Origin: a virus
Virus record (IMG/VR): IMGVR_UViG_3300049847_000198
Location: 48,082-112,081 of that record
Reading direction: 5' to 3' (one strand)
DNA: 64,000 bases
Part shown: positions 4,405 through 59,995 of the stretch, one piece after another
Numbering within the stretch: the stretch's first letter is position 1
Layout: every line of letters starts with the position of its first letter
The notes under the pieces: generated by a model
The model's input: only the letters and a program-made list of their open reading frames with translations
Told to the model about the DNA's origin: nothing
Database searches by the model: none
Program-made: the position numbers and the translations under genes

Positions 4405-4418
4405 GTGCCGCGCGGCAC
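4405..4418. repeat. parS-like palindrome copy 1 (GTGCCGCGCGGCAC)
   Basis: Matches consensus TCAGGTGCC-N4-GGCACTCGAAA; directly downstream of the polymerase-like gene stop. Confidence 0.85.
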
Positions 4419-4429
4419 CTGAGTTTCGG

Positions 4430-5971
4430 CTACGCCGGAACGACTGCGACTGTCGGCGATAGGCGGGACTGCCGAAAGCAGTCAACGAGACACTGCTCAG
4501 CGAACTTTGCGTCCGACTCCGTCACCAACAGGCTATCGTGGATCGTGCCAAGAAAACGCTTCGGTCTCGCCTTGAGGAACGCGGCAGCAGCTTTGTGGAT
4601 CACGTACTGGCTTTCGATGTTCTGGAGTAGCTTCGGTAAGACCGAGTGATGTGACCGCTTCAAGGTGCAGATGATCTTCCAGACGTGAGGAAATTCCCTG
4701 ACAAACAAATCTCGGAACAGGCGACCCGGAACGTCTTCTTTTTCGCAGAAGATGCACTCTCTGAAGAATGTCTGTTTGAACTCATGCCGAGCCATTGATG
4801 CGTAGCTGGTGCCAGCAGGCACTAGCTTTTGGAAGTGATCGTAGAGTTGGCCTTCACAGCAGAGCGTGATGTACCGCTCGCACTCTTTCCAGTGATGCTT
4901 TACCAGCCTGATCGCCGACAGAACATCGCTTTCGATGCTCTTGCTCAGAGGAACTGCCGAAGTCGGTTCTTGGTACAATTCCTGTGTGTTTTTGCAGTCA
5001 AAATCACCGTAAGTCGTTTCTTTAGTTGATTTTTCGTTAGATTGTTGCATCATAAGGGTGTGGGAGGGAGAGGGGCTTTCCTGCGGTTGTGTGGCGTTGT
5101 CTTGTGCGTTTGTTACATTTCGCGTCAGACGTTCAGTTGTGACTTTAGCTACACTGTAGTCGTTTTGTAATGAGTACCGTTCGATCTTGTGTATCAACTC
5201 ACGTACCTTGTCAGACTCCACGGTGTCGCTGAGGTTGAAAAGAAACATCAACAGACATCCGAAGATGAACGGCTGGCTGTTTCGGACATCGGTGTTCCAG
5301 AGTGATTCTCCGTGCCATCGCAGGTATTGCCGCAGGTCCGAGGACAGGTTCGTTAGGTTACTATGAACTCGCCCGTACTTGTCTTCCATCAAAAAGAATT
5401 GATGCGTTGAGATCATGGTGATGCTTGACTCGTCCATCCATTGAGCGAACTTCGGGTTCTTGGTTGCCGAATAGTCCTTGGCGAATCGCACATGCCGCAG
5501 AGCCGCTGGCGTGTCGATTTCCAGCCCTCTAAGCAGTTGGTACAGGGATTTGATCGTCGGACTTGAGAACCTGTCCTGCTGATCGTTTCGGAACTTGTCG
5601 ATCTTGCGGTTCAAGCGGCGGTTCTTGACCGGACGGATTACTCCGTAGGCGTATCGGAATGTGCCTGTCATGCGGTAGCTCCTTGAATAAAAACCAGCCC
5701 TATAGCTCAGATCGACCTCGATGACACCATTTTCTCTAAGCCAGTCGATCCACTTCGAGAGTCTCTTCCACGAAACGACCTCCCGTAGCTTGTCGATCTT
5801 CAAGTAAACCCAATCGTCCGGGTCGTATCGCCGCGAGTCGTGCATGAATCGCCCGTAGACGCAGTGAACGATGTAGGCGGCTTCCTCCCAGTGCTTCGAG
5901 AGTTCTGGCGGCGCACGACTGGCGATATCCAGCGTTTCAGGCAGCGTCAGATATCTCTGCGTCCAAGCCAC
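4430..5971 (-). CDS. Family-A/T7-like polymerase-fold protein, paralog 1
   Basis: GRVHSNLTNL, motif A-like DVRNSQP, motif B-like RHEFKQTFF, LQNIES, motif C-like TIHDS; no exonuclease domain seen. Confidence 0.65.
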   Translation of the reverse strand: MAWTQRYLTLPETLDIASRAPPELSKHWEEAAYIVHCVYGRFMHDSRRYDPDDWVYLKIDKLREVVSWKRLSKWIDWLRENGVIEVDLSYRAGFYSRSYRMTGTFRYAYGVIRPVKNRRLNRKIDKFRNDQQDRFSSPTIKSLYQLLRGLEIDTPAALRHVRFAKDYSATKNPKFAQWMDESSITMISTHQFFLMEDKYGRVHSNLTNLSSDLRQYLRWHGESLWNTDVRNSQPFIFGCLLMFLFNLSDTVESDKVRELIHKIERYSLQNDYSVAKVTTERLTRNVTNAQDNATQPQESPSPSHTLMMQQSNEKSTKETTYGDFDCKNTQELYQEPTSAVPLSKSIESDVLSAIRLVKHHWKECERYITLCCEGQLYDHFQKLVPAGTSYASMARHEFKQTFFRECIFCEKEDVPGRLFRDLFVREFPHVWKIICTLKRSHHSVLPKLLQNIESQYVIHKAAAAFLKARPKRFLGTIHDSLLVTESDAKFAEQCLVDCFRQSRLSPTVAVVPA

Positions 5972-6211
5972 GGATCATCCCGAATCGTTCGAGGATGCCG
6001 ATTTCTCGTGGCCAACAAAGAACGATAGCCACACGTCTCCGACAACGTATGGCTACGCCCTGAAATAAAGCCCGTAGGCTGTTGTTCCCTGTCCATACCG
6101 AGTCGGAGTTCGGCATCCAGATTATGCCGCTGCCGTCCGCTCGGATCAAGTCAAACCTATCATTCTCTGGTTTTCAGTAAAACGAACATCGAGTTACGGG
6201 AGATTCCCGAT

Positions 6212-6484
6212 TTACTGGCCAGCCGTTGAAGAAATCGCTGCACTCTGAAAGAACGGATTGTTCGGATTGGCGAACGCAGGCGGGTCGTCCATGCGCACCT
6301 TGTACCGGAACTTCATCTTTTCGGGATCGACCATGACGACTTGGTCTTTCCATTCGCCGCTGATGAAGAAGAACGGCTTCTGACCGCATTCGTCTCGCTT
6401 GAAGTTGCCGGCATTGACTGCCAAGAAATTCTTGTCGCCGTTCATGGCATAGACGGTTCGCAATCGCACTCTACTCATCGGCAT
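6212..6484 (-). CDS. Hypothetical protein
   Basis: 90-aa ORF overlapping the HU stop. Confidence 0.55.
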   Translation of the reverse strand: MPMSRVRLRTVYAMNGDKNFLAVNAGNFKRDECGQKPFFFISGEWKDQVVMVDPEKMKFRYKVRMDDPPAFANPNNPFFQSAAISSTAGQ

Positions 6485-6773
6485 ATTCCTTTTTTGCCAG
6501 TGCCGTGAACTTCCTCGCCAGCGTCGCTGAGGTGTTGAACTTAACGATCAGATTGTCAGGCACTTGAACGCTCTCCCCGGATCGTGGGTTCCTCGCCTTG
6601 TGTCCGGCACGCAGACGAACCTCAAAGACTCCGAGTCCTCTGACATCCACTCGGCGTTCCTCCTCCAGAGAAGCGACGATCGCCTTGAATGTTTTCTCGA
6701 CGAGTTCCCTGGTCTTCTTCTCGGTCAGACCAGTCATGTCCGAGATGGTTGCAATCAGTTTTTTGTTGAGCAA
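6471..6773 (-). CDS. HU/IHF-family DNA-binding protein
   Basis: VDVRGLGVFEVRLRAGHKARNPRSGESVQVP signature; AAGGAG RBS. Confidence 0.9.
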   Translation of the reverse strand: MLNKKLIATISDMTGLTEKKTRELVEKTFKAIVASLEEERRVDVRGLGVFEVRLRAGHKARNPRSGESVQVPDNLIVKFNTSATLARKFTALAKKEYADE

Positions 6774-6811
6774 GACAGACTCCTTGAACTCTCGACCCGC
6801 GAACTACTTTG

Positions 6812-6928
6812 TCAAAAATTGTATGCAGGCTTACCGATCAGCGTCTCGGCAGCGGGCTTGCTGGCAAGCTTAGCAATGAGGCAAGCAGCAACAACGAAAA
6901 AGAGCGTAATGATGCAGAATTCTTTCAT
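6812..6928 (-). CDS. Small membrane peptide (38 aa)
   Basis: MKEFCIITLFFVVAACLIAKLASK...; AAGGAG RBS; shares a 19-bp upstream element with the HU gene. Confidence 0.5.
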   Translation of the reverse strand: MKEFCIITLFFVVAACLIAKLASKPAAETLIGKPAYNF

Positions 6929-7030
6929 TCCACGACTCCTTCTTTAATAACTCTCGACCCGCGAACTCACTAGCCAGACGGGATTGGTTCTGCCCACGAG
7001 TGCTCTTTCTGGCCTTGAGACACATTAAAA

Positions 7031-7103
7031 TGCGACGTGACGGAATCGAACCGCCTTTCAGGGAGTTGAAAATCCCTTGCATGACCAATCTGCCAACGCC
7101 GCA
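7031..7103 (-). tRNA. Atypical tRNA, 8-nt anticodon loop (TTC Glu or TCA suppressor reading)
   Basis: Acceptor TGCGGCGT/ACGTCGCA; D arm GCAG-ATTGGTC-ATGC; anticodon arm AGGGA-TTTTCAAC-TCCCT; T arm GGCGG-TTCGATT-CCGTC; no encoded CCA. Confidence 0.85.
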
Positions 7104-7108
7104 CGAAC

Positions 7109-7606: not shown

Positions 7607-7693
7607 ATCGTTTTCCTTGGAATTGAAACCTGAGATGGAAGAAAGAAACGTACCGTCGAACACTTCAGGAATCACGGCGGACCTCTCGCGTAT

Positions 7694-8485: not shown

Positions 8486-9606
8486 TACCTTGCCTCAATT
8501 AGAGCCATAAGAAAGAAAACGCTGAAGTCCGCGTTACGCATCAGGAACGCACGCGGTTCCGACTGTGGACCACCAGCACACACATGCACAACCAGCGGTT
8601 CTTTGGACGGAAAGCACTTACTCGCCGAAGCCACGATCTCCACGTTCAAGCAAATCGTCACGTCAGGTTCGCCTTCACAACTACACGGCACCGTGGCTTC
8701 CGACTCACCATGCTGTGACTGCATCGACAGGCTGATCGTCTCTTTTTGGATGTGGGTGTCAATCCCCACGATCTCTGGCAGCTTCACCACGGCCATCTGT
8801 TGTGCTGCCAAGAAGAAATCACCAGCCTCTGCGATCGCCACTGGAGACGACTGCCTCAGTTTTCGATAGTTGGCCAGCGTGAATTTGCTGCCGATGTTCT
8901 GATGGCAGCCGACCTCAACAGCCATCTCTTCGCTCTTCGACTGCAATCGGATCGTCTTGTCGCTGGCGTAAACGTCCGCCTTCGTTCCAACACAGGCGTC
9001 GGCCAGCAGAGCGAGCGACTCGCGAGCACAGTTGATCTGCGGGAACTCTTCGCAGTCAGCGTTCAACGAGATACACACGAAGCGAGTCAGTTCGCTGCGT
9101 TCGCTCATGTCGTTACCGAAGACCATCGCCTTGCCAGCATCGCAGAATATGCCGCCTGAACCGATGCCGCCATCCCGCGTCGCTGACGACGAATACCGGA
9201 ACGCGGCACGCAGAACTTCAGGATCAGTCGAGAAGACAAACTTGTCGCTGAACTCCGGCATTGAGCGATTATCTTCTTCGTGCATCGTGTTGATGGTCGT
9301 CTTGCCGCCATCGAATGCGACGCCGATCTTCTCTTTGCCGACGCCGAGTTCTATAACTTCTCCGCGAGCACTCATTACGGCACCGAGAAGTTTTTCTGAC
9401 AGAACGTAGACGCAGAACTCGTCGTCGAACTTCTCTTCAAATGAGACCTCGCAGAACGCCGCCTGTGCATTCATCGCAAACAGAGACAGGACACGGTCTT
9501 TGCACGTCAGTTTGATCGCCTGATAGCACGGGTTCGGACTGCGAACAGCCGTGAACCGCGAGACCAGAGAGACAGCTTTCTTCAATAACTCAGATTTGAT
9601 TTTCAC
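8485..9606 (-). CDS. dnaN: DNA polymerase III beta sliding clamp-like protein
   Basis: 373 aa; N-terminus KSELLKKAVSLVSRF..RSPNP; C-terminal ICLNVE..ASK and FFLMAL pattern. Confidence 0.7.
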   Translation of the reverse strand: MKIKSELLKKAVSLVSRFTAVRSPNPCYQAIKLTCKDRVLSLFAMNAQAAFCEVSFEEKFDDEFCVYVLSEKLLGAVMSARGEVIELGVGKEKIGVAFDGGKTTINTMHEEDNRSMPEFSDKFVFSTDPEVLRAAFRYSSSATRDGGIGSGGIFCDAGKAMVFGNDMSERSELTRFVCISLNADCEEFPQINCARESLALLADACVGTKADVYASDKTIRLQSKSEEMAVEVGCHQNIGSKFTLANYRKLRQSSPVAIAEAGDFFLAAQQMAVVKLPEIVGIDTHIQKETISLSMQSQHGESEATVPCSCEGEPDVTICLNVEIVASASKCFPSKEPLVVHVCAGGPQSEPRAFLMRNADFSVFFLMALIEAR

Positions 9607-9828: not shown

Positions 9829-10131
9829 TGCTTGCCTTTCGGTTAGATTCGTCACGTTTCGGTCGCGGAGACACAAAAACAACCTCTTCACGACAGGAAG
9901 CCTCGCCATGCCTCACCGCCTTTGAAATCGCAGCGTCGATGGCTGAGATTTCCGTCTCGCCATAAGCACGAGACATCTCGCCGTAGTCCAAGGATTCATG
10001 AAACAACCAGGCAACGTAGGTTCCGTATTTGTCGGGGCCACTCACCACTGAAGTCACGAACATATCGCATTCCAATCGAACCTGGTTGACGTTTTACGCA
10101 ATCGTTTTTTGTTTAACGACTTGCGGCTTGA

Positions 10132-10145
10132 GTGCCACCTGACAC
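10132..10145. repeat. Degenerate parS-like palindrome (GTGCCACCTGACAC)
   Basis: One arm mismatch; flanks GA...TCGAAA conserved; intergenic. Confidence 0.6.
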
Positions 10146-10922: not shown

Positions 10923-10925
10923 GAT

Positions 10926-12425: not shown

Positions 12426-12453
12426 ATTTTACCAAAACGAACAAGGAACGCAA
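12426..12453 (-). promoter_or_regulatory. Phage promoter motif TTGCGT-N16-TAAAAT with GTTCGTTTTGG spacer
   Basis: Same spacer motif at four other intergenic sites. Confidence 0.65.
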
Positions 12454-13193: not shown

Positions 13194-14678
13194 ATGAACA
13201 TTTCGCGAGAAGATTTACAAAAGCTGATTATTGTCAAGGACTCTGGATGCTGGCACTGGAACGGAACAATTCATCTTCCTCACTACTGCCATGTGATTGT
13301 CGATGGCGAGAAATGCAACGCTCGTCGAGTGGTTAGGCAAGTTTTTGGACCACCATTCAACGAAAATCTTGCCCTGCTAAAGACCTGTAAAAACAACTAC
13401 TGCGTTGCGCCTGCGCATCACCTGACCGGCGATGAACGGTTTCTGAAAAACTACGCCGTCTCGGAAACTGGCTGCCATGAATGGAAGGGCGGGATTACGG
13501 TTAATGGATACGGAGTGACAGGGAACGGAGGTGGTTGCAAAAGAGCGCACAGGAGAATGTGGGAATTGAAGGTTGGTCAAATCCCGCAAGGGATGGTCAT
13601 CAGGCACCTATGCCATAATCGAAAATGTGTTAATATCGACCACTTAGCAGTTGGCACACACCAAGACAATATGGACGACATGGTTAAGGCTGGCAGAGCC
13701 TGTAACGGATGGAAGAACGGCAATTACAAGAAGTCTTACCTAGATGAAAAAGACATCCTCGAAATCAGGCAACTTGCCTCCGAAGACGAGTTTACTCTAT
13801 GGGAAATCGCCGAGGCTTACGGAGCCGATGTAAGCTATATCTCAGACATCGCAAAAGGTGATTGCTGGCCACAGGTTGGCGGACCAAGAACGAAAAGAGA
13901 AGACGATCCGGTTTTCAAATACATCACCAAGGGCAGCGAAAAGTTCAACGCCAAGATCACCGAGTCCGACGCAGTTCGTATCAGAGAACTATGCGACGAA
14001 GGAGTTCTCACACAGGGACAGATTGGAGATCAGTTCGGCATCGACCAAACAGAAGTCTCTGACATCGCTCACGGAATCATCTGGAAACACGTTGGAGGGC
14101 CGATTGTTGAAGGCCACTACCTGCCGACAAACCGAGAATACGACGTTGGCGAAGACCATCACGCAGCCAAGATCACTGAGATCGACGTCAAAGAGATTCG
14201 CAGGCTGTATGCCACAAAAGAAATGAATCAACAGCAGCTTGCCGAGCGATACGGACTAAAGCAGTGCCATGTATCCGACATCGTACTGAGTGTCTCGTGG
14301 AGTCACGTTCCGGCAGAGCATGAGATCAAAAAGAAAACCACTGGCGTAAACTCGCAAGGCAAAGCCTGCAAACTGACAGAAAATGATGTTATTCAAATGC
14401 GAGACTGCTACCGCAACGGAGCATCGTTCTCTGAAATTGCCAAAATGTTCAAAATCTCTCCAGATGCCGCCAGAAGCACGATCATTGGACTACGATGGAG
14501 TCATGTTCCCGGAGCGATTCCCGACGCCGGAAGAAACATCACAGAGAAGGATGCGATCAAGATAAAGGCGATGCTACGAGATGGAGAGAAGCCTAGATCA
14601 ATCGCAAAAGAACTAGGAGTCAAGCCGGGCGTTGTCTACAAAATATCAAGCGGTCAGTCATGGTCTCATGTGTCTTAG
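13194..14678 (+). CDS. HNH homing endonuclease with five C-terminal HTH repeats
   Basis: CHEWKG..GYG..AHRRMW..RHLCHNRKCVNIDHL..GTHQDN; five KxTExD..IR..W-x-HV-type repeats. Confidence 0.85.
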   Translation: MNISREDLQKLIIVKDSGCWHWNGTIHLPHYCHVIVDGEKCNARRVVRQVFGPPFNENLALLKTCKNNYCVAPAHHLTGDERFLKNYAVSETGCHEWKGGITVNGYGVTGNGGGCKRAHRRMWELKVGQIPQGMVIRHLCHNRKCVNIDHLAVGTHQDNMDDMVKAGRACNGWKNGNYKKSYLDEKDILEIRQLASEDEFTLWEIAEAYGADVSYISDIAKGDCWPQVGGPRTKREDDPVFKYITKGSEKFNAKITESDAVRIRELCDEGVLTQGQIGDQFGIDQTEVSDIAHGIIWKHVGGPIVEGHYLPTNREYDVGEDHHAAKITEIDVKEIRRLYATKEMNQQQLAERYGLKQCHVSDIVLSVSWSHVPAEHEIKKKTTGVNSQGKACKLTENDVIQMRDCYRNGASFSEIAKMFKISPDAARSTIIGLRWSHVPGAIPDAGRNITEKDAIKIKAMLRDGEKPRSIAKELGVKPGVVYKISSGQSWSHVS

Positions 14679-15930: not shown

Positions 15931-18885
15931 TCACTTCGAGTTGATAATCCCCAGAACCTCGCTCGGAGCGAGCGGCTTCCACTTGTTGTTCGCCAGCTTG
16001 TCGATCAACGCCGATGCGTGCGTGAAAGAAATCCGGTCAGGGTCGATGCCAGCCTTCGCAATCACCTTCGCCTGCTTGTAAGTGCAGAGCTTTTCTTTTC
16101 TTCGCTGCCCAATCCGATCCAGTGTTGCCGCCGCCATCGTGAACGACATCTTCGACATCTCTTCTGGCTTCACTCCATAGTGACCGAGAGCGTCGATCAT
16201 CTTCTGTGACGGCTTACGATTGCGATGCCACTCTGGTTCACGAATCGCATGGACGTGCAGCACATGAAAAACATCCACCTTCTGTCGCGTGTACGCAACC
16301 TTCGCTTCGATCATCTTCCGCTTATCGGCATCCAACGCAAGACGTGCCATCTCTCGCTTCTGGCGTTCCGCTTCCAGTTCTTCTTCGGCCTTCTCCAAGG
16401 CTTCGACGGCGTTCTTTGGTCCGTTGCCGTCTTTCGCGTTCTCGTTCGCACGAGCAACCACTTCGTCAGGCATGTTGCCACCGAGAATGTCGATAGCAGA
16501 GACGAGCGAGTGTCGTGTGTTTCCCACAAAATCTATGGCAGTCATCGTTTTTTTACCAGACTGCTCAATAGCCGATCTGCGTTCTTCTGGAGTGCCTAGT
16601 CGCCACCAATCTCCGTTCTCGTTTTTTCCTTCGATGACATTCGGAAGAACTCGCGTTCCACGTCCAATCTGCTGAGCAACCACAGAGCGAGACTTAGTTG
16701 GTCTTCCGAGTGCGATATACTGCGTAATTGGTGCATCAAAGCCTTCGACGCAGTTTCCCATCACAGTCACTGTTCCACGCCTTCTTGTGATGATGTTTTT
16801 GCTCTGCGTACTGACGCACCAAACTTTTTCAGATTTCCAGTTATCTTCGACTTGTAGAGAGTGCCCTTTTGTTGTTTTGTGTATCTTGGTTTTCTTTAAG
16901 CAAATCTGATTCAGTCGCCTGCTGTTTTCTCCATTAAAAGAATCGTGAACAGAAGCCCTGTACCCACGACAGCAAGCTATCGCTTGGATTAGATCAAACA
17001 ACTGCTTGTTAGCACCGCACACATAGAAGGAGTCGCCCTCAGGCCGTATGCTGTTTTTGTGGTCCGTTCCATTTGCCATCCACCAACCGTAGAGAAAACA
17101 GTCGAACTGCTCGTTACTGAACCCCCAGTAAAGTTCGCTGCCAGACTTTTTTAGATATGGCTCAAGGCGATAAACGCCACGCCTAGCCTGTGGTCCAGAA
17201 CCAGTTCCGCGAGGCAAAGACCAACTATGTCCATCTGCCTTGAATGTCCCGGATTTCTTGTTCCTCTCAATCTTGTCTATGCCGCACTTATCGAGAAGGT
17301 GATTGACTCGATCTATGATCGCTGGATTCTTGTTTGGTTGGAAAAGTTTGTACTCGATCCCGCCAGTCTTGAGTCGGGATGAAGTTCCGTCGCCAACCCA
17401 AAACCCAATTAACTCACATTCTTCAAGAGTTAATTCCGGTGGATTTGAATACTTAAAACTGGCAAGATATTCGACTCGCCTAATAGCCTCGGCCTTGGCC
17501 TCAGTCTTTCCTAGGCCCCTCTTTCTTAGTTCATAAGAGAGAGAACGTATCTTTGAAGGAGTAACTTTCCTGGTCTCTTGAACTGGTTTCACATTAAATG
17601 GAACGGCAACGCCAGACACAGGCAACTCTACGGACAATCCAGACAACTGCTTGGCTGTTTTTTTCTTGAAATCACCATCCCTGAATGTGCGATATAAGAG
17701 ATCGTGGTCTTCTGTGACTCGAATTGACCTTCTTCCGGTGTCCAGTGACACCATTTTTTCTTCTGGAAGACGATCTCGCTTGATAAGTGAAATAGGCTTC
17801 TCGAACCACGCTTCTCCCTGATCCCAGTTAGCGATGAGGTGCTGGTCGGTGATTGAATCCATTCCAATAAAACCAGAGGATGTCAGGATTTCGGTTTCTG
17901 AATCAAGACATACTCCAACATTCACAAGCTGAGAGAACTCTCCCTTACGGAACGAATTGAATAGCCTTCTACGTCTATCCTTGTCTGAAGAAAGGACGCA
18001 CCACGGATACTCTTTACCGTCGTCAGGGACGCGAGACACGATGGCGTAGCTGGACCCGGATTGCTTGCGGCAGAATATCTCGCTTGTGCGCACCGCCTGC
18101 TCAACTCCAGCAGTGAACACGATCGTTGACTTACCGCCAGAAATGTCCCATGTGGCTTCAGTAACTCTGTGTAGCGGCTTTTCTTTAAGCATCTCCTGCT
18201 CAAGCTGTGAATCAATGAAATCTCCACAAGAGACGCCAACCGCGTCTAACTGAAGGTCTTCGACAAATACAGTTTCCTGTTCAATCGGAACAAGCCATCC
18301 GTCATTGATCGCAGACGGACCTCCGTTTGGACTGTAAAGCTGGTACTCGAAAGCGACCGCTTCAAAACTCTGGCCCAACGCCTGTTCGTCGCTCCTGTCT
18401 GGCGTCGCAGTAACAGACGCGACCCGACAAGCCGGATTGCCTTCAAGAAAGTAGTTCACTATATTTGAGTAAGTTTTGTTCGCCTGAACAAAATGATGGC
18501 CCTCATCAATGATTATCAAACAAATCTCTCGTGGGTCCGGGAATTCCGAACGAAGCCTTTCTAGCCTAAACAAAGTTTGAACGCTGGCAAAAGTGATTCG
18601 AGATTTGAACTTGTTGCCTACTCGCGTCTGTTTCTGTTGTACGATGTCGCCAAAGTCGTCGTACAGATCACGCCACATTGCGTGCGGCTGAGTGACGAGT
18701 TCCTCTCGGTGAGCGAGCCACAGAACTTTTCCACCATCACTGCCGGCCGCAACAGACAGAGAAATGACAGTTTTTCCGCATCCTGTCGGGAGTACGCTCA
18801 AGCATGATCGCTTATTCGTTAGCGTTCCAAGAATCGCGTCCCTGCACTCTATCTGATAGTCCCTCAAGAAGTCGTCACTAATCAT
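15931..18885 (-). CDS. SF2 DExH helicase containing an intein
   Basis: LRDYQ, LPTGCGKT, IIDEGHH, TATPDR, EGFD, QQIGRGTR. Confidence 0.92.
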   Translation of the reverse strand: MISDDFLRDYQIECRDAILGTLTNKRSCLSVLPTGCGKTVISLSVAAGSDGGKVLWLAHREELVTQPHAMWRDLYDDFGDIVQQKQTRVGNKFKSRITFASVQTLFRLERLRSEFPDPREICLIIIDEGHHFVQANKTYSNIVNYFLEGNPACRVASVTATPDRSDEQALGQSFEAVAFEYQLYSPNGGPSAINDGWLVPIEQETVFVEDLQLDAVGVSCGDFIDSQLEQEMLKEKPLHRVTEATWDISGGKSTIVFTAGVEQAVRTSEIFCRKQSGSSYAIVSRVPDDGKEYPWCVLSSDKDRRRRLFNSFRKGEFSQLVNVGVCLDSETEILTSSGFIGMDSITDQHLIANWDQGEAWFEKPISLIKRDRLPEEKMVSLDTGRRSIRVTEDHDLLYRTFRDGDFKKKTAKQLSGLSVELPVSGVAVPFNVKPVQETRKVTPSKIRSLSYELRKRGLGKTEAKAEAIRRVEYLASFKYSNPPELTLEECELIGFWVGDGTSSRLKTGGIEYKLFQPNKNPAIIDRVNHLLDKCGIDKIERNKKSGTFKADGHSWSLPRGTGSGPQARRGVYRLEPYLKKSGSELYWGFSNEQFDCFLYGWWMANGTDHKNSIRPEGDSFYVCGANKQLFDLIQAIACCRGYRASVHDSFNGENSRRLNQICLKKTKIHKTTKGHSLQVEDNWKSEKVWCVSTQSKNIITRRRGTVTVMGNCVEGFDAPITQYIALGRPTKSRSVVAQQIGRGTRVLPNVIEGKNENGDWWRLGTPEERRSAIEQSGKKTMTAIDFVGNTRHSLVSAIDILGGNMPDEVVARANENAKDGNGPKNAVEALEKAEEELEAERQKREMARLALDADKRKMIEAKVAYTRQKVDVFHVLHVHAIREPEWHRNRKPSQKMIDALGHYGVKPEEMSKMSFTMAAATLDRIGQRRKEKLCTYKQAKVIAKAGIDPDRISFTHASALIDKLANNKWKPLAPSEVLGIINSK
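16753..17910 (-). mobile_element. Intein (386 aa) with LAGLIDADG-type endonuclease
   Basis: Starts CLDSETEILT; block B VTEDH; LIGFWVGDG and FLYGWWMANG; ends TVMGN|C; splits motif V (LVNVGV|CVEGFD). Confidence 0.9.
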
Positions 18886-19941: not shown

Positions 19942-20259
19942 TCACCTCCGAAGAGGCCGATCTGCTTGTTCGCTCGATTCAATCCAGGATGCAATTATCG
20001 ACATTGCGACTTCTTCGTTTTCAGCATCTGGTGTAACCATCTTATTCAGATTTTCGCGGCAACAGAGAACGAATCCTTCGTCAGAGAATCCGCTCACCAA
20101 TTCATCCTTTGAGAGCGAGTTCCAATCAACGTCAGATTCAGGAGGAACACCAATAACATCGAGAATCCAATCCTGAATTTTCCAATTAGGGTCTGCGTTG
20201 GAGACGATTCTGATTAGGCGAGACAAGTCTCTCGCAGAAACCGTGAACGATGTTTTCAT
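19942..20259 (-). CDS. Hypothetical protein
   Basis: TAATG coupling to the ParB-like gene. Confidence 0.5.
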   Translation of the reverse strand: MKTSFTVSARDLSRLIRIVSNADPNWKIQDWILDVIGVPPESDVDWNSLSKDELVSGFSDEGFVLCCRENLNKMVTPDAENEEVAMSIIASWIESSEQADRPLRR

Positions 20260-21209
20260 TATCTTGCCTCCGGGTGAATCGCACGAAACTGCATATCGCT
20301 CAGCCAACCACTGCCGCCGCATCTCTGGCAGTCGCCGCCCACGCACTTCGGGCATTCCTTCGCTGGCTTCGACACTCGCAGGCACTCCTGCGCCGACTTG
20401 ATGTGTGCCTTCAGTTCATTCGTCTTGATCCGCTGTCCGCCATGCTCTTCCGTCAGGTCTTCGGCATCCCTCAAAAGATCGCCAAGCCGGTTTATCAACG
20501 CCTGAATCTTCCCAGCCGTCTCTTTTGCCACCTGCCACTTCGTCTGCGTGCCCGCAGGAGCGTTCGCGACAGCTTCCGTGAGCGTTTTAGCCTTCCCGGA
20601 CTTCACGGCTGCTACAGCCTCGATTTGGGCCTCTGGCGGCATATCCGCAATCTTCGAGGCATCGTTCACGCTGACGACGCCGTCGTCGACAGCCTTGACG
20701 ACAGATTCGTCAGCTTCGTTCAAAACTTTCGCCGCACGAAAAGCGGACCTACGTGACGCTCCAGTCTCTGTAGCTGCTTGCTCCACAACATCTTCCGTCG
20801 CTCGCTTTTTTCGAGTGCCACGTGGCACCTGAGTTTCTTCGGCTGCTTTGTCGGGTAATCCCTGCGTTCCGTTGCGATACGCAGCAATGCGTGCTGCCGC
20901 CATCGCTCGGTCCTTCGGCGTCAGGTGCCTGCGATTGATATTCTTCGACTTCACGAACTCCAAAAGAGCGGCATCGAGTTCAGCGTCCGACGTGATGCCG
21001 TCTGGAGGTTCCCACTCACGGTACTGCGGAGCGATTCCAGCGTCACGACAGGCGAGTTGGCGGTTCTTACCATCAAGAACTTGCCCTTCGTAAGTCACGA
21101 TCCAGTCTTCAAGCCCGTTGTCTTTGATCGACTCGACAAGATCGTCGTATTCATCGCCCAAAACATGACCGAAAATTTCGCAGTATGGGTGGTGCGGAAG
21201 CAATTGCAT
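20259..21209 (-). CDS. ParB/Srx-family protein with HTH and C-terminal Zn finger
   Basis: LVESIKDNGL..IV..VLDGKNRQLAC, SKNINRRHLT, HTH AATETGASRRSAFRA, CPKC..CQRC; likely start ATG 21209. Confidence 0.85.
   Translation of the reverse strand: MQLLPHHPYCEIFGHVLGDEYDDLVESIKDNGLEDWIVTYEGQVLDGKNRQLACRDAGIAPQYREWEPPDGITSDAELDAALLEFVKSKNINRRHLTPKDRAMAAARIAAYRNGTQGLPDKAAEETQVPRGTRKKRATEDVVEQAATETGASRRSAFRAAKVLNEADESVVKAVDDGVVSVNDASKIADMPPEAQIEAVAAVKSGKAKTLTEAVANAPAGTQTKWQVAKETAGKIQALINRLGDLLRDAEDLTEEHGGQRIKTNELKAHIKSAQECLRVSKPAKECPKCVGGDCQRCGGSGWLSDMQFRAIHPEAR
20815..20828. repeat. parS-like palindrome (GTGCCACGTGGCAC) inside the ParB-like gene
   Basis: Perfect 14-bp palindrome with full consensus flanks; encodes VPRGT. 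Confidence 0.85.
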
Positions 21210-27422: not shown

Positions 27423-29366
27423 CTACCGTCCAGCGATCACGGATTTCCTCAGTTCCTCCGCCCAGTTCACGGAGCCGAGCGACTGAAAATCCTTGCCGAA
27501 CTTTGCCTCGTACAGTTCTTCGCTGATCGTTTCTTCTTTGCCGCTCCAATACAGAACCTGAACCAGCTTGGACTGCTTGTCGCGGTACACGTCCTTCACC
27601 TCCATCGCTGGATCGAACTGTCGCACGAGGTTGTCGCCGAACTCAGGGAGTTCACGCACGGCTTGAAAAAGCAGCCATGCCGCGTCAGCACGGTCAGACG
27701 AACGTCCGATCTTTTCTTCAACGCTCTGCCGATTATCCAAAGCGACCGTAGACTTCTGTGTCGGCTTCTTGCGTTTGTCGTTCAAGCGATACTGTCCTGG
27801 CTTGCCTGTGAATACCTTCTCGTGAGCGAACAGTTCTTCCCACAACGGAGCGGCATACGAATCGTTCGGAATCAGCCACGGCGTCAGATTCATCTCAGGG
27901 TCAATCGCGTCTGCAAACTCGCCGCAAATCTCCGCACGGCGATTCATGTATTGCATCTTGTCACGCTCGGCGGCAGCGCCGAACTCCACCTTGATGACCC
28001 ATGCTCCGTCCTTCTCAAGATTGTCTGCCAAGCCCTTGCCGACCCCGGTGTAGTCGATGCCAATCGGAACCATGCCTTCGTAGATTCTGAGTCCACGCCC
28101 AAGGCATATCTCAGCGAACGCTCCCTGCAACTCTGCCTGATTCTGAATCTTCTCAAGAACGATCTCTTTGATACCGACGTTGTCGCCAAAAACAAAACAG
28201 CTTGGGTCGCCACGCTTCGATGCGCCAACGTCCACTCCAACCGCTCGTGCCGTAATCAGCGACTCTTTTTCGATCCACTTGTCGCCAAGAATTCGCGGCC
28301 ACGCCGAACCGTAGATTTCAAACTCACTGCCTGTCTTCGGGAACCGACCATACGCTCGCCACTCCCTGTCTTTTGTTTCTTCGACGCTCTGGAAGATGTC
28401 CAGCGTCCCCTGTCCGGGAATCAACGGCTTGATGTCTTTTGTGAACTCGTCAGGAATGAACTCGCCGGGAGCGAACTTCCTGCCACGGACATGAATCCCT
28501 TTCGGCGGCGATATTCGATTCGATAGTCTGTTCGCCTTCACGTTGACGCAGTGCATCAACCCGATCGACTGAAGCCGTCTCGGACCCGTTGAAGAGTTCT
28601 GTGTGATGATTCCTGACTCAAACGTCTTGGCAGCGGCATATGCTCTGTAGAACCAGCCTGACGGAGCACGCGGATTCGAAATGGCGATAAAGAACCGCAC
28701 CTGAGACAAGGCGTCGTTGTAGTAATTTTCTGGACAACCCGATGCCTCGTCCACGCAAATAAGCGTACAGGGGGCGTTAGTATACGAATCATAGCTGTGG
28801 TAGCCAGAAAGTCCTTCGCCAGACTCCGTGTTGACGATCTTGATGAAGTGGCTGTCCTTGCCGATCTCTTCGATACGTTCCTTCTGCACGTCTACCTGAG
28901 AGATGCCCATCTTGTACGACGACATTCGCAGTCTCCACGTCTTCGCTTCTCCAAAAAGATTGTCGCGGACGTGCCCGTTGTTCGGTCCAATCAGGATGAT
29001 CTTGCAGTTCGTGAACCTCTCGAACCAGATATTGACTATCAAGCCTCCGACCGTGAAACCTTTTCCCAACTTCGTTGCACCGCTAACGAAAAGCTGTGTG
29101 TGCCGGTTGTCAAACACCGAGCGGATTGCATCGACCTGAAAGTCATCGAGTCTGAGATCGAGGTTGTCTTTTCTTTCGAGGTGCTTGGCGAACTCAGCAC
29201 GTTCTTCCATGTCCGTGATGATGAGTTCTGGCCACTCGAATCGAATCAGCGGGAACGGGTCTCCTTCTTCAAGGAGATCGAGCATCGCTAATTCGCGAGT
29301 CGCTAGTTTGCTGCGTAGAAGGTCTGCGTCGAAAAGCTGGTACGACGGCTGTTGGTCTTGATCCAT
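27423..29366 (-). CDS. terL: Terminase large subunit
   Basis: Walker A SGATKLGKG, Walker B CVDEASG, ISNP, nuclease GVDVG..GD, IGIDYTGVG, NRRAE, SSDRADA. Confidence 0.9.
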   Translation of the reverse strand: MDQDQQPSYQLFDADLLRSKLATRELAMLDLLEEGDPFPLIRFEWPELIITDMEERAEFAKHLERKDNLDLRLDDFQVDAIRSVFDNRHTQLFVSGATKLGKGFTVGGLIVNIWFERFTNCKIILIGPNNGHVRDNLFGEAKTWRLRMSSYKMGISQVDVQKERIEEIGKDSHFIKIVNTESGEGLSGYHSYDSYTNAPCTLICVDEASGCPENYYNDALSQVRFFIAISNPRAPSGWFYRAYAAAKTFESGIITQNSSTGPRRLQSIGLMHCVNVKANRLSNRISPPKGIHVRGRKFAPGEFIPDEFTKDIKPLIPGQGTLDIFQSVEETKDREWRAYGRFPKTGSEFEIYGSAWPRILGDKWIEKESLITARAVGVDVGASKRGDPSCFVFGDNVGIKEIVLEKIQNQAELQGAFAEICLGRGLRIYEGMVPIGIDYTGVGKGLADNLEKDGAWVIKVEFGAAAERDKMQYMNRRAEICGEFADAIDPEMNLTPWLIPNDSYAAPLWEELFAHEKVFTGKPGQYRLNDKRKKPTQKSTVALDNRQSVEEKIGRSSDRADAAWLLFQAVRELPEFGDNLVRQFDPAMEVKDVYRDKQSKLVQVLYWSGKEETISEELYEAKFGKDFQSLGSVNWAEELRKSVIAGR

Positions 29367-29375
29367 TGCGCAAGA

Positions 29376-29789
29376 CTACGTTGGTTCCACTAGATTCTCA
29401 ATCCGAAACGTCAGTGGACCACACTTGCCAGTGCGTGTTTCGACAGAGTCAGACCAAGTCCAGCGAAAAAGTAGGCAGTGAGTTTCTGAACTTCCATATG
29501 CCAGATTGCCGATCAAAACCGTGTCGTCAGGACCAAGACGCAACGTCAGCGTTCCGTTGCTTGCCACTGCGCCGTTATTGGCGTCCAAGACGTTCTGGTT
29601 CTCGCGACCATTGATGACAGTTCTTGTGTCTCTGTCGTACTGCGTGCAGACCAAAGAAATCAACGCCGCCTTAGCGATTGCATTGCCGTCCATGTCCTTA
29701 AAAACGACGACGAGATTTCCGCTCTCTCCCTCTTGGAAGACTGCGTCCTCGCCATCGCCATCTTGAAGCACCGTCGCCATCGGCTTCAC
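29376..29789 (-). CDS. Putative virion structural protein (Ig-like)
   Basis: Beta-strand-rich; within the fibre gene cluster. Confidence 0.5.
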   Translation of the reverse strand: MKPMATVLQDGDGEDAVFQEGESGNLVVVFKDMDGNAIAKAALISLVCTQYDRDTRTVINGRENQNVLDANNGAVASNGTLTLRLGPDDTVLIGNLAYGSSETHCLLFRWTWSDSVETRTGKCGPLTFRIENLVEPT

Positions 29790-39477: not shown

Positions 39478-39777
39478 CTACTCTCCGTCGAAATGACTGA
39501 CGAAGGTGTTGATTATCCAGACGCCGCCACTGGCGAACATCCCGTCGAGAAACCATGAGATACTTTCAGGTGCCACGTGGCACTCGAAAGTTGGACTCCA
39601 GCAAGTCAACGAAAGTGCAAAACCTACCCAAGTCCCCGTACACATCATGCACGAGAACAGTTCGCTCAGCCACTTGCTGCGTGGCTCCAGCCAGTTGCGG
39701 AACGGCTCAAGCTGCTTCGAGTAGACCAAAATCTGGCTCAAGCCGAACGCGGTTATTAGCCAAACGAAGAAGTTCAT
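39478..39777 (-). CDS. DUF1360-like membrane protein
   Basis: PFRNWL...ELFSCMMCTGTWVG; TM segments. Confidence 0.65.
   Translation of the reverse strand: MNFFVWLITAFGLSQILVYSKQLEPFRNWLEPRSKWLSELFSCMMCTGTWVGFALSLTCWSPTFECHVAPESISWFLDGMFASGGVWIINTFVSHFDGE
39570..39583. repeat. parS-like palindrome (GTGCCACGTGGCAC)
   Basis: TTTCAGGTGCCACGTGGCACTCGAAAG, full consensus. Confidence 0.85.
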
Positions 39778-39794: not shown

Positions 39795-40616
39795 CTACCG
39801 AAAGTAATTCATCGCTTTGATTCCGACGTAAGCAAGGATGTCGCTCTCTCCGCGTTCTTTTGCGTCAAGAAAACGGTGCTTGCCTTCGATCACGAGAGGC
39901 CCGTCAATCGACATCGGATATCCAGAATCCACCATGATTGGACCAACGGAATTCGAGCGTCGGCAATACCTGTCCCCGATAATCGAGACATCGCTCATGT
40001 CGATCCGCTTCAGAAAGAAAACTTCTGAAGAAACAACGTCCACCGGGAAAACGTCTTGCATTAAACGGACTTGCCCTCCACTGATCGTTTCCGGGAGTTG
40101 AATTATTCCACAATTCAAGCACCTATCGAAACGAGTTCTCGCATTCTCAATTGCTTCGCACGGCTCATATCGCACGCACGGTTCTCCGCGAACAGCGGAA
40201 GAACTGACGCATCGCAAATACTTCGGAGGTATCAGGAAAATCTGCTTGAGATTTTCGATTGGCGGTGACTCGTATTTAGCCTGAGAGAGACCAGCCTCGT
40301 ACTCGAAGTCTTTTTTGTCTCGAATACCACGAATCAAAGTCACATCAGAATTATGGAATTCGTCTCTTATTGATTTCAGGAACTCGGATATTTCACAAGC
40401 CTTAATGCTTAATCCGATCGGCATCATGCGAAGCAACATTTCGTATCGCTCAGCCTCGCTGTGCCGATGTCTTTTCGTTGGATGCTTTCCGATGATAACG
40501 AAAAACTTGTCGTAATCATGGATCGACTGACAAACGATCCATTTGTGGCCAGCCGTAGGCGGATCAAAGCTGCCTGTAAAAACCCCGATGGTCACTTTTC
40601 TCTGACTCGTTACCAC
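39795..40616 (-). CDS. CoaD/PPAT-like nucleotidyltransferase fused to a ParB/Srx-like domain
   Basis: GSFDPPTAGH, LIRGIR..DFEYE, VSSSAVR; C-terminal VIEGKHRFLDAKERG..ILAYVG. Confidence 0.75.
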   Translation of the reverse strand: MVTSQRKVTIGVFTGSFDPPTAGHKWIVCQSIHDYDKFFVIIGKHPTKRHRHSEAERYEMLLRMMPIGLSIKACEISEFLKSIRDEFHNSDVTLIRGIRDKKDFEYEAGLSQAKYESPPIENLKQIFLIPPKYLRCVSSSAVRGEPCVRYEPCEAIENARTRFDRCLNCGIIQLPETISGGQVRLMQDVFPVDVVSSEVFFLKRIDMSDVSIIGDRYCRRSNSVGPIMVDSGYPMSIDGPLVIEGKHRFLDAKERGESDILAYVGIKAMNYFR

Positions 40617-55835: not shown

Positions 55836-56018
55836 TCTTCAGCACTTCGTCGTTCCATGCTCTCAGCCAGTACGGGTCGCTGCTGATTTCAGAACACTCG
55901 CACGGCCAATCACTAACTCCACACGGGCACATCGCCTGTAACTTACTCAGTCGTCTCTGCTGGCAAATCTGAGCACAGCGACGCTGCGTTGAGACTGAAA
56001 AACTATCCTCTTCGCACA

Positions 56019-57259: not shown

Positions 57260-57306
57260 TACTTTGCCTTTCTGTGAGTTGAAATAGAAGCGATAAGCGG
57301 ACGAGG

Positions 57307-57335
57307 ATTTTACCAAAACGAACAGCGTTTCGCAA
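57307..57335 (-). promoter_or_regulatory. Phage promoter motif TTGCGA-N17-TAAAAT
   Basis: TGTTCGTTTTGGTAAAAT identical to the 12426 site. Confidence 0.7.
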
Positions 57336-57351
57336 CCAAAGACGTTTTCGA

Positions 57352-57365
57352 GTGCCGCGCGGCAC
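57352..57365. repeat. parS-like palindrome (GTGCCGCGCGGCAC)
   Basis: Extended GTTTTCGAGTGCC..GGCACCTGAAAAC; divergent intergenic region. Confidence 0.85.
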
Positions 57366-57496
57366 CTGAAAACTAAGGCTAGAAGTTTTTGATCGGCCCA
57401 TCTAAACTAGAAGCCGCGAGAGGAACGAGTCCAATCGCGGCTTTTTCGTTGTCTGAAGCGTTTCGCGGCGCGTCAGGCGGCAGCTACATCAGGGCA

Positions 57497-59164
57497 ATGA
57501 TGAGCATGACGGATTTTATTCCAGCCACGAAGAAACGTCAATCAGCCAGAAGACCGCATTCATTGACGGTCCCGAAGGAAATTCGGTTTGGCGATTTGCC
57601 GCCAGAATTGGCCAAGCATCCCGAAGAGGGACTCTGGATCGTCAGTTCGCTTTTTAGTCGCTCGCTTTACGATTCGCGGTACGAAAATGCCGATCAGTGG
57701 GTTCCGCTTAGCTCCAAGGTGATGGCGAAAATCGTCCGCAAAGAATGCGTCAAGAAGTGGCTTTCTTTTCTGGAACCAGAATTCATTAAGTGTCGGGGAA
57801 AGTCCTATCAGGCAGGCGTTAAGTCAAAGGAATACAGAATGAGCGACAAGTTCCGCCATCAGTCAGGGAAAACGATTCAAGTTCGAGACAAGATGGTCTC
57901 CGAGAAACTCGACGGCTGGCAGGCTGAACGAGAGGAATGGAAAGGCGACAAGACGCTGGAAATGCTTCTCAAACACCTCGACAAGATCACGATTCGGCGG
58001 CAGGCGGCCACGGACTACATCTACCATGAGAAGGACTACAGCGATCCGAGCATCAAGAACCCGGAGCACGCCAGAAACTGCGACGAGACATCAATCGAGG
58101 CGATGGCCTCAAAGCATCGCTTTTTCATCGTAGACAAGTACCGCAGAATCCACACGAACCTGACGAACATCTCGTCCGACCTGCGGCAGTTCTTGCGGCT
58201 ACGGAAAGGCGGAGACCTGAGCGTCGTAGACATCCGCAACAGCCAACCATTCATCTTCGGCTGCCTGCTTCACGAACTGCTCGGCATGAGCGACGACATT
58301 CGCGACATGGCGACGGCAGAGATCGCTAGGCGAGTTTACGAGTACGCCAACGACGCCATCGCAGAGGACGAAAACGAACGACGCCGAGACGTGAACAAGC
58401 GTAAACGTAGTGAACATCTGACGCCATCAAGTTCCGCTGCCGCCTCGTCCGCTCCCGTTCCCCCGCTCCATCCCACACCCTTATGTGTCGGGTTTTTGGC
58501 ACAAAATGACCACTTTGAGATTCGTAAGTCTGAACAGGAACTGGAGTTACGTCAATTTAATAGCGTGTGTCCACTGCCAGACACAAAAGGCGCAAGTAAA
58601 TACAAGGTAACGACTTACGAAAACACATCTCGCTCAATTCTGTCGATTTCGTCCGAATCCGTGGTCGCGGCGATCAGACTGGCAACGTGGCACAAATCCG
58701 AGATTCAGAGGTATTCAGACCTGTGCTCTCAGGGATTGCTCTACGAGTTTTTCGCGCAGCACTTGGCGACTGGGTCGGAACTCAAAGACCCGTTGAATCG
58801 TCGCCGCCTCAAGGAGTCGTTCTTCCAAGAGACCATCTACTGCAAGAGCGTGACGGCACCTGACAGGCAACTCAGGGATGTTTTTAAGAACGAGTTTCCG
58901 GGAGTCTGGAAGATCGCCTGTCAGCTAAAATCCTCTCACCATTCCGTGCTACCCAAGCTGATGCAGTTTTTAGAGAGCGGATACATCAGGAAGGCCGTCG
59001 AGATATTCGCTCAGAAGCATCAAAATCGCTTTGTAGCCACGATCCACGATTCCCTGATGGTTGAGCACTCTCTGGCTGAAGACGCTGAGGAAGCGATCAG
59101 GGACGCTTTCAGCGGCATTCCACTGATGGTGCATACCGAGCGGCTGTCGTGGCACGCTGGGTGA
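57497..59164 (+). CDS. Family-A/T7-like polymerase-fold protein, paralog 2
   Basis: RRIHTNLTNI, DIRNSQP, RRRLKESFF...Y, LMQFLES, TIHDS; collinear with 4430..5971; ATG 57497 preferred over the track start. Confidence 0.65.
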   Translation: MMSMTDFIPATKKRQSARRPHSLTVPKEIRFGDLPPELAKHPEEGLWIVSSLFSRSLYDSRYENADQWVPLSSKVMAKIVRKECVKKWLSFLEPEFIKCRGKSYQAGVKSKEYRMSDKFRHQSGKTIQVRDKMVSEKLDGWQAEREEWKGDKTLEMLLKHLDKITIRRQAATDYIYHEKDYSDPSIKNPEHARNCDETSIEAMASKHRFFIVDKYRRIHTNLTNISSDLRQFLRLRKGGDLSVVDIRNSQPFIFGCLLHELLGMSDDIRDMATAEIARRVYEYANDAIAEDENERRRDVNKRKRSEHLTPSSSAAASSAPVPPLHPTPLCVGFLAQNDHFEIRKSEQELELRQFNSVCPLPDTKGASKYKVTTYENTSRSILSISSESVVAAIRLATWHKSEIQRYSDLCSQGLLYEFFAQHLATGSELKDPLNRRRLKESFFQETIYCKSVTAPDRQLRDVFKNEFPGVWKIACQLKSSHHSVLPKLMQFLESGYIRKAVEIFAQKHQNRFVATIHDSLMVEHSLAEDAEEAIRDAFSGIPLMVHTERLSWHAG

Positions 59165-59165
59165 T

Positions 59166-59351
59166 TCAGTTCGGCTTGAACTCTTTCCACCAGAACGCAT
59201 CGAACGTCAGCCAGTCTCCGTGTAGTGATCGGTGGAACTGAACCTCGCCAGTCAGGCGATGGCGGCGAGAATCCATCTCGCGGCAGCGACCGTATTGCCA
59301 CGGCCAAAGAACGATGGCTGACCAAAAACGACCGAGCAGGCTACGTTTCAT
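59166..59351 (-). CDS. Small hypothetical protein
   Basis: 61-aa ORF. Confidence 0.4.
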   Translation of the reverse strand: MKRSLLGRFWSAIVLWPWQYGRCREMDSRRHRLTGEVQFHRSLHGDWLTFDAFWWKEFKPN

Positions 59352-59370
59352 TGGACTTTCCGTTTTTCGG

Positions 59371-59384
59371 GTGCCGCGCGGCAC
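59371..59384. repeat. parS-like palindrome (GTGCCGCGCGGCAC)
   Basis: TTCGGGTGCC..GGCACTCGAA; intergenic. Confidence 0.85.
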
Positions 59385-59390
59385 TCGAAT

Positions 59391-59660
59391 TCAATCGGTC
59401 AACTTCTTCCAGACGATTTGCCTTGGTTCGCCACGGATCGGGCCTTTCTTGAGGGCCGCTAAGAAACGATCAACATCTTCGCTCGGAAACGGGATCAAAC
59501 AGCCTCTCGTTGGCGGATATCCGCTGCACTGGCAATCGACATGGCAGTCGTCGGACAGTCGGATTGCCTGCGGTTCGGCGACTTTACCCGTGTCGGGTAT
59601 GCACCCGGCAATCGCAGCAGCCAGAGTGGCTGACGATTTCAGTAGGTCTCTGCGATTCAT
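59391..59660 (-). CDS. Putative Tat-exported lipoprotein
   Basis: MNRRDLLK twin-arginine motif plus lipobox IAGC; AGGAGG RBS. Confidence 0.55.
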   Translation of the reverse strand: MNRRDLLKSSATLAAAIAGCIPDTGKVAEPQAIRLSDDCHVDCQCSGYPPTRGCLIPFPSEDVDRFLAALKKGPIRGEPRQIVWKKLTD

Positions 59661-59890
59661 GCGACGGCCTCCTGTAAAAACGGGATATCGAGGAGAGACC
59701 GAACCTCGGTCTGTTTCATGCCGTTCTTCTTCAGCTTGTCCAAGATCGAACCGTACTCCACGTCCGAGAGTGACATTGCTGGTCCATTGAACCAGTTGAG
59801 CATGTCGGCGTGGGACATTGGCCAATGCGCCGACAACTCCGCGAGAGAACGATTTTGCATTGCGAAACGACTTTCTGTTTGAACTGTCAT
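59657..59890 (-). CDS. Hypothetical protein
   Basis: ATGA-coupled ORF. Confidence 0.5.
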   Translation of the reverse strand: MTVQTESRFAMQNRSLAELSAHWPMSHADMLNWFNGPAMSLSDVEYGSILDKLKKNGMKQTEVRSLLDIPFLQEAVA

Positions 59891-59928
59891 TTTCTTAAAC
59901 CAATGTGGATAAACGATTTAATTCTTAG

Positions 59929-59995
59929 GTGCCAGATGGCACTCGAAAATTCTTGTCAGGTATTCTCTGATAAAAACTCAGGTGCCGCGCGGCAC
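59929..59995. repeat. Two parS-like palindromes (59929-59942, 59982-59995)
   Basis: AGGTGCCAGATGGCACTCGAAAA and CAGGTGCCGCGCGGCACTCGAAAA, 53-bp spacing, AT-rich context. Confidence 0.85.

Follow-up and report, generated by a model that had tools for sequence, protein, structure and literature searches.

What protein reads a palindrome that recurs across a phage genome, and which process would it serve? The question is raised by a 26-bp near-palindrome present in 8-9 copies in the 112-kb contig of an uncultured phage (IMG/VR record IMGVR_UViG_3300049847_000198; 112,081 bp, classed as linear and estimated to be 79% complete). The window analysed here is the right-hand 64 kb of this contig (64,000 nucleotides, contig positions 48,082 to 112,081), and all coordinates refer to it unless they are given as contig positions. 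One copy of the motif lies inside the gene for ParB-B (20259..21209, minus strand), an orphan protein of the ParB/Noc/KorB type, and the first-pass annotation of the window had proposed that sites and protein form an orthogonal ParB-parS system marking replication loci.

The comparison of this locus with its relatives leads to a different account. On a cautious estimate the motif is probably the cognate duplex site of ParB-B, a protein that heads a helicase module, and the sites would serve replication initiation or helicase loading and not ParA-driven partition. A ParB-B dimer would recognise the GTGCC-N4-GGCAC dyad through its helix-turn-helix (HTH). The copy in the linker-coding DNA of the ParB-B gene would be the ancestral site, carried by nearly all members of the subfamily, and at such sites ParB-B would start or organise replication, either because it loads or recruits the SF2 helicase encoded nearby or, possibly, because it nicks the DNA. 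In this large phage the site would have multiplied to its 8-9 copies, with the tandem pair at 59929 and 59982, beside an AT-rich stretch at the GC-skew minimum, as the best candidate for the main origin and the remaining copies as secondary loading sites.

The repeated motif and its placement

A survey of all palindromes in the contig yields a single enriched family, GTGCC-N4-GGCAC, with 9 cores observed against approximately 0.1 expected and a shuffle maximum of 3. With up to two mismatches allowed, GGTGCCRCGYGGCAC gives 13 strand-matches against 0.47 expected, and none of 100 shuffles reaches 13. Eight of the cores carry the oriented flanks YTCRG and TCGAAA, and when all 112,081 bp are scanned with a position weight matrix (PWM), 8 strong oriented copies stand out at 30-48 bits, compared with a shuffle maximum of 18; their flank-oriented consensus is YTCRG-GTGCC-RCGY-GGCAC-TCGAAA. 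Seven of the strong copies fall in the window, with cores at 4405(-), 20815(-), 39570(+), 57352(-), 59371(+), 59929(+) and 59982(+), so that every full copy listed initially is recovered; the eighth lies upstream of the window, at contig position 30369(-).

The two copies that had been described as degenerate fare differently. GTGCC-AGCA-GGCAC (4809..4822, plus strand), inside the gene for a polymerase-like protein (paralog 1; 4430..5971, minus strand), has perfect arms and intact flank asymmetry without the outer flanks, and is therefore counted as the ninth core. The copy at 10132 has one arm mismatch (GACAC) and a PWM score of 11.3, which is inside the shuffle range and therefore indistinguishable from chance. 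All seven full copies have a self-complementary centre (ACGT in three, GCGC in four), and the other two cores read AGAT (59929) and AGCA (4809). The parS-like CACGTG centre noted initially is found in only three copies, four having CGCGCG and two others differing from both. The core is invariably bordered by G on one flank and by T on the opposite one (9 of 9 cores, P~0.002), and the site is therefore intrinsically asymmetric.

Gene calling by codon usage gives a coding density of 88.6%, and all but one of the eight strong copies fall within the non-coding remainder of 11.4% (P = 1.8e-6). The occupied gaps are tandem, convergent and divergent. The copy at 4396..4427 (-; core 4405-4418, centre GCGC) lies 11 nt past the stop codon of paralog 1 and 72 nt ahead of the start of a 1641-aa gene; together with the 4809 core it bears out the remark that copies lie beside and within this gene. 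The in-gene copy of ParB-B occupies 20806..20837 (-; core 20815-20828, centre ACGT), and that at 39561..39592 (+; core 39570-39583, centre ACGT) a convergent intergenic gap. A second polymerase-like gene (paralog 2; 57389..59164, plus strand) is flanked by the copy at 57343..57374 (-; core 57352-57365, centre GCGC), in the divergent gap ahead of it, and by that at 59362..59393 (+; core 59371-59384), in the gap where paralog 2 and a small gene for a Tat lipoprotein converge. The tandem copies (59867..60004, plus strand; cores 59929-59942 and 59982-59995, 53 bp apart, with an AT-rich stretch) form the candidate origin core and complete the group of four around paralog 2, which spans 2.64 kb.

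A palindromic core also invites a reading at the level of single strands, as an N4-type hairpin promoter, an intrinsic terminator or an RNA regulatory stem, and an 11-bp extended stem is possible in three copies while several copies lie just past stop codons. Four of seven copies, however, form only a 5-bp stem of -4.4 kcal/mol, z-scores are near 0 and no better than those of shuffles, there are neither compensatory changes nor a U-tract, and only one copy is called terminator-like. One copy lies in a divergent gap and one within a gene, motif orientation is independent of gene strand, and Rfam has no match. The weak stems and the lack of an Rfam match argue for a duplex protein-binding site, and a hairpin promoter or terminator is barely credible. 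Recombination-site and nick-site readings were set aside on spacing and strand distribution, by reasoning alone.

An exact-motif scan of IMG/VR gives 0 matches and one of the JGI metagenomes 9, none of them homologous to the contig by tblastx. No close relatives are found by megablast of 50 kb of the window or by TerL tblastn against INPHARED, and single-protein locus searches for a 62% polymerase relative and for ParB-B relatives of 83-85% identity likewise return none. Mimicry of host chromosomes was rejected, as 185,579 GTDB genomes contain 9 exact matches in 596 Gbp, about the chance level. Three of the nine GTDB matches lie in one uncultured Rikenella metagenome-assembled genome (CAJTNK01; L097, L100, L103), in a REP-like hairpin, GGTGCCG-CT/AG-CGGCAC followed by CTGGGTTTTT, which is present there in many copies; the resemblance is a chance one and the sequences are otherwise non-homologous.

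ParB-B and the palindromes within its gene family

ParB-B consists of an N-domain with GKNRQLA and N..RRHL boxes, an HTH, a coiled coil and a CxxCxGxG zinc motif, and matches ParB-like families of PHROG (PHROG 4715 at 8.7e-14). In the structural model (pLDDT 73.5) the ParB N-domain is followed by a helical HTH region and a coiled coil of 60 residues, with the CxxCxGxG motif at the C-terminus. The top 30 Foldseek matches are ParB, Spo0J, Noc and KorB proteins, with the N-domain and HTH covered over ~210-230 columns, and VIA gives Z values of 10.1 to pNOB8 ParB, 8.8 to KorB and 8.6 to Spo0J. The family profile matches the Noc/Spo0J N-domain, boxes II and III included; GKNRQLA and K-N-I-N-R-R-H-L align to GERRWRA and ENLQREEL of Noc, at the positions of the CTP-binding boxes of ParABS-type ParB (GxxRxxA and ENxxR), but the catalytic Glu is not conserved. 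Nucleotide specificity is not predictable from ParB-fold sequence (PMC12704722).

Residues 116-135 are the sole disordered internal segment of ParB-B, and the in-gene motif, which does lie just ahead of the HTH as first described, encodes T126-K135 of this linker between the N-terminal domain and the HTH (T-Q-V-P-R-G-T-R-K). In relatives of 83-85% identity Q-V-P-x-G-T is kept, the centre residue is R, A or H, and the rest of the linker drifts, a protein pattern that mirrors the DNA pattern of constant arms and variable centre. Distant homologs lack the linker segment altogether.

Alignment of the ParB-B family retrieved 80 phage loci with 77 distinct homologous genes, and repeated palindromes are enriched in these loci (57 families compared with 2 in shuffles). 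Within the 77 genes, perfect palindromes with arms of 6-16 nt are concentrated +10 to +128 nt past the codon of the box III arginine, where two 59-nt bins hold 71 and each of the other 13 bins 2-10, and the in-gene copy of the present phage falls inside this pile-up at ~+105 nt after box III. Because palindrome sequences and encoded peptides differ between lineages, the constraint is on the DNA and not on the protein, and the in-gene site is a conserved, lineage-specific trait of the ParB-B family.

One group of loci (L121/L122/L167) carries a 22-bp palindrome, AATTACGCC-ACGT-GGCGTAATT, in its ParB-B-like gene and two more per locus, and the 50-kb contig of this group contains 4 exact copies. 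The in-gene copy encodes I-T-P-R-G-V-I from TACGCC-ACGT-GGCGTA, and its linker position, frame and CCA-CGT-GGC centre match those of Q-V-P-R-G-T-R in ParB-B; the arms differ symmetrically from those of the present phage, and the dispersed copies follow the group's own variant. With frame and centre the same and the arms symmetrically altered, the site has therefore diverged along with the ParB lineage. Two further loci (L155, L117) have dispersed palindromes of other sequence, the in-gene copy among them. Within 10-20 kb, 38 of 40 lineages have no copy besides the in-gene dyad, a pattern that fits an origin better than a scattered centromere, and this phage, the L121 group, L155 and L117 would be derived cases with extra copies. 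Some loci of the family also carry extra tandem palindrome arrays 0.6-2.4 kb from the ParB-like gene (L126 7525-7590; L119 5505-5585; L107 11149-11380), as in one case where GGAAGGTGC-TACG-GCACCTGTGG occurs three times at a spacing of 21 bp; such arrays may be additional binding sites or operators.

Comparative genomics thus pairs the motif with ParB-B, its best candidate reader, and would give the pair an origin function. What survives of the original assignment of this gene as the cognate protein is the ParB/Noc/KorB N-domain with its HTH and the conserved, lineage-specific in-gene site, but not the partition-type parS. The second ParB-like protein put forward with it, a CoaD fusion encoded at 39795-40595, lacks an HTH, its Srx-like part being no more than a short tail. 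Two additional ParB_N proteins had been missed. ParB-A (contig 28766-29755; L094:1447-2436), outside the window, has the contig's most canonical ParB N-domain (GHRRLKA; Pfam ParB_N above cut-off) and is followed by a 1,275-bp non-coding gap containing the out-of-window motif copy. ParB-C (61223-61888, plus strand) is followed by a PAPS-reductase-domain protein (62405-63388, plus strand), and the two are presumably an IbrB/IbrA-like pair.

Replication, partition and transcription as possible roles of the sites

Pfam assignments show ParB-B homologs followed by an SF2 helicase (ResIII/DEAD + Helicase_C) and then a Toprim protein; of 77 loci, 49 have a same-strand helicase within 3 kb and 45 have Toprim within 6 kb. 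Because the family heads a helicase-Toprim module, the replication link suspected from the window is real. The ortholog in the window is a 984-aa SF2 (ResIII/DEAD) helicase at 15931..18885 (minus strand), 1.4 kb downstream of ParB-B on the same strand and identical to its orthologs at 38% in the N-terminal part and 34% in the C-terminal part. In the cultured Acidovorax phage AP1 (OM049504.1), the ParB-B homolog UIS65450.1 (gene 8605-9429) comes after an Xre repressor and early genes and directly ahead of 'helicase' and 'primase', which is the slot of lambda O, and its linker-coding DNA contains a near-perfect 23-bp dyad, AATCGGGTACT-G-AGTGCCCGATT. The window helicase also has a ~375-aa insertion between the helicase halves (~residues 327-701), at whose junctions an R-K/R-G...N-x-G segment is partly duplicated; an intein is one possible identity, an inserted domain another.

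Cumulative GC skew along the contig reaches its minimum at ~108 kb (~59.9 kb in the window). The contig's second most AT-rich 60- and 100-nt intervals start at 59867-59876, abutting the tandem copies at 59929 and 59982, and this stretch has 70% AT compared with a mean of 47.6% (99.97th percentile). The AT content around 57352 is at least at the 99.4th percentile. The ParB-B gene holds just one copy, the DNA around it is not enriched in AT (38th-71st percentile), and a cluster of iterons beside an AT-rich region is absent there; the tandem pair with its AT-rich neighbour lies outside the gene. Site polarity around the putative origin is not significant (0.375).

Several points weigh against a replication role for ParB-B at these sites. 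The strict G...T asymmetry is not explained by a symmetric dimer, and the sites lie kilobases apart in contrast to the clustered iterons of classical origins. The dispersed copies of this phage have to be explained separately, given that 38 of 40 lineages possess just the one palindrome within the gene. A Toprim homolog was not found in the contig, gene orientation switches at the GC-skew minimum, which is therefore not independent evidence, and ParB-A or ParB-C could be the reader instead. The phage, moreover, is known from a metagenome alone. With these reservations, a wider proposal can be put forward only tentatively: an orphan ParB-fold subfamily found in many temperate and large phages may consist of initiators that carry an in-frame origin dyad between the nucleotide-binding domain and the HTH and load the adjacent SF2 helicase and Toprim primase, the dyad having multiplied in this phage into a network of origins or loading sites that brackets two polymerase-like genes.

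Were the motif instead a genuine centromere for partition, ParB-B would act with a ParA, supplied by the host or by the ~21% of the genome that is missing, to segregate a prophage maintained like a plasmid, as N15 and P1 are. A site inside a parB gene is also known from B. subtilis spo0J and dispersed SopB sites from N15, and the contig is estimated to be only 79% complete. Yet PF01656 and PF13614 have no match in the 112 kb available, which extends to the whole contig the earlier observation that the window has no ParA, and family members lie in helicase-primase modules and not in parAB operons. The ParA-interaction motif [LFI]G[KR]G[LFI], as defined in PMC12704722, is absent from ParB-A, ParB-B and ParB-C alike, and canonical parS, Noc-binding sites (NBS) and KorB O_B sites are absent from the contig. 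Without a ParA or a ParA-binding motif, and with a single in-gene site in most family members, a partition-type parS is not supported, and a centromere is highly improbable.

The main rival keeps ParB-B as the reader and gives it a regulatory or organising role, as a ParA-independent clamp of the KorB, Noc or VirB kind for which the sites would be operators or loading sites for transcription or genome organisation and not origins. KorB and Noc are both matched by Foldseek and VIA, and the scattered sites resemble the O_B sites of KorB in RK2 (PMC5016525; PMC11790492). The promoters of the contig bear on this directly. A phage promoter family, TTGnnn-N5-TGTTCGTTTTGGTAAAAT, is sigma70-like, with an extended -10 element and a conserved spacer, and stands at operon heads; its members lie at 12441(-), 38082(+), 57322(-), 61903(+) and 63404(+) in the window and at contig positions 6253, 9542, 19998, 27215, 30627 and 37897. 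Copy 57352 is centred at ~-58 of one member, a sigma70-type extended -10 promoter at 57307..57335 (minus strand; TTGCGA-N17-TGGTAAAAT), and a small minus-strand open reading frame (ORF) starting at 59890 has copies 59929 and 59982 upstream of it. Only copy 57352 adjoins a member of the family, however, and the promoter family does not carry the motif. The other sites that were scanned have no accompanying promoter or terminator, with no promoter near 4405, 39570 or contig 30369. Only one to three of the eight copies are near a promoter, and the helicase/Toprim synteny and the single in-gene site of most lineages point to replication. A regulatory or organising clamp is considered unlikely. Readings of the motif itself as a sigma54 or sigma70 promoter were rejected by eye and by scan.

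The polymerase-like genes raise the question of another reader. Paralog 2, whose true start is probably near residue 30, is 37% identical to paralog 1, and both have an invariant Asp, Lys and Asp at the motif A, B and C positions (motif C T-I-H-D-S). Their predicted fold is an N-terminal winged helix followed by a minimal family-A palm and fingers, with VIA Z values of ~12 to Pol I and T7 DNA polymerase and ~9 to mitochondrial RNA polymerase and N4 RNAPII. The family has 9,750 cluster representatives at E<1e-3, no Pfam model, and members in numerous phages, some of them on contigs of jumbo size. A 25-nt inverted repeat (92% complementary), distinct from the motif, lies within both paralogs (5051-5075, 58461-58485).

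The winged helix of these proteins could read the sites as priming or promoter signals, or ParB-A, ParB-C or another regulator could do so. Three of the eight strong copies are within ~206 nt of paralog ends and one core is inside paralog 1 (estimated P~0.003), the contig 30369 copy is 613 nt downstream of ParB-A, and the right half of the motif matches the Syn5 RNA polymerase promoter at 9 of 11 positions, which is a lead only. In 80 polymerase-family loci of other phages, on the other hand, no shared palindrome is found, and polymerase-family loci never co-occur with those of the ParB-B family; the motif is therefore not assigned to the paralogs. Transcription in the forward orientation would be antisense at five of the eight sites, and use of the motif as the paralogs' promoter was rejected on orientation and on the lack of a shared motif in the 80 loci. 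Given also that the position, frame and centre of the in-gene copy are homologous across ParB-B lineages, a reader other than ParB-B is judged improbable.

Three other features of the window were recorded. A tRNA at 7030-7103 (minus strand; Rfam tRNA 48 bits) has an 8-nt anticodon loop and is given by ARAGORN as type undetermined with anticodon 'ttca'. An HNH endonuclease with several HTH domains (13194-14678, plus strand) lies on the opposite strand amid a long run of minus-strand genes and resembles an inserted homing endonuclease. A tandem array at 63736-63997, with 12-18-nt periods and GGCAAC/GGCTAC/GGCGAC units, lies in a plus-strand ORF (63746-63964) encoding a Gly-Asn/Tyr/Asp-rich repeat protein.

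Comparison with known initiators and ParB systems

Phages and other mobile elements often encode orphan proteins of the ParB fold, most of whose DNA targets and roles have yet to be worked out (PMC12704722). That survey covers orphan phage ParBs and fusions, uses 'helicase' only for other folds and 'primase' never, and describes no in-gene site; a literature search of limited reach found no description of a ParB with an in-gene site that heads a helicase module. The present analysis gives a concrete, testable pair of site and protein, and a rule apparent across ~77 phage lineages, by which the cognate palindrome sits in the linker-coding DNA of the ParB-like gene. If the replication reading holds, it would define a new initiator class for phage replication modules, in which the NTP-switch fold of ParB acts as a replication-initiation device undescribed in the 2025 fold survey (PMC12704722). 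It would also allow simple origin prediction in uncultured phages, and Acidovorax phage AP1 provides a cultured representative of the family.

Dispersed centromere repeats of SopB, including sites in the replication region, are known from N15. The present contig resembles N15 in being a phage genome with several dispersed ParB-type palindromes, but N15 has SopA and is a plasmid prophage, whereas neither a ParA nor any sign of plasmid lysogeny is present here.

In the chromosomal Spo0J-parS system, one parS site is reportedly located inside the parB (spo0J) gene, a finding attributed to Lin and Grossman in 1998. ParB-B shares with Spo0J an N-domain followed by an HTH, a palindromic site, with an ACGT centre in three copies here and in two other lineages, and one in-gene site. 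It differs in lacking a ParA and a ParA-binding motif, in the arms of its site, in box II (GKNRQLA and not GERRxRA) and in its helicase/primase synteny. Several chromosomal parS sites are clustered around the origin (PMC5016525).

KorB of RK2 is also a ParB-fold protein that acts without ParA, at a short palindrome scattered over the replicon, with some O_B sites at promoters and some distant. By contrast, no KorA-like partner was identified here, most sites are off promoters, and the family is linked to replication genes.

Phage SPP1 has oriL within gene 38 and a second site far away. In lambda the origin is midway within gene O (PMC8508860, section 2.6). As with lambda O at ori-lambda and SPP1 G38P, the putative initiator site of ParB-B lies in DNA that encodes the linker of the protein itself, the gene heads the replication module, and the AP1 homolog occupies the O-gene slot. 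The ParB-B fold, in contrast to O and G38P, is that of ParB/Noc/KorB, the gene has one dyad compared with four clustered iterons, and 8-9 copies are dispersed over the present contig. For the candidate origin function, lambda O and SPP1 provide the closest analogy.

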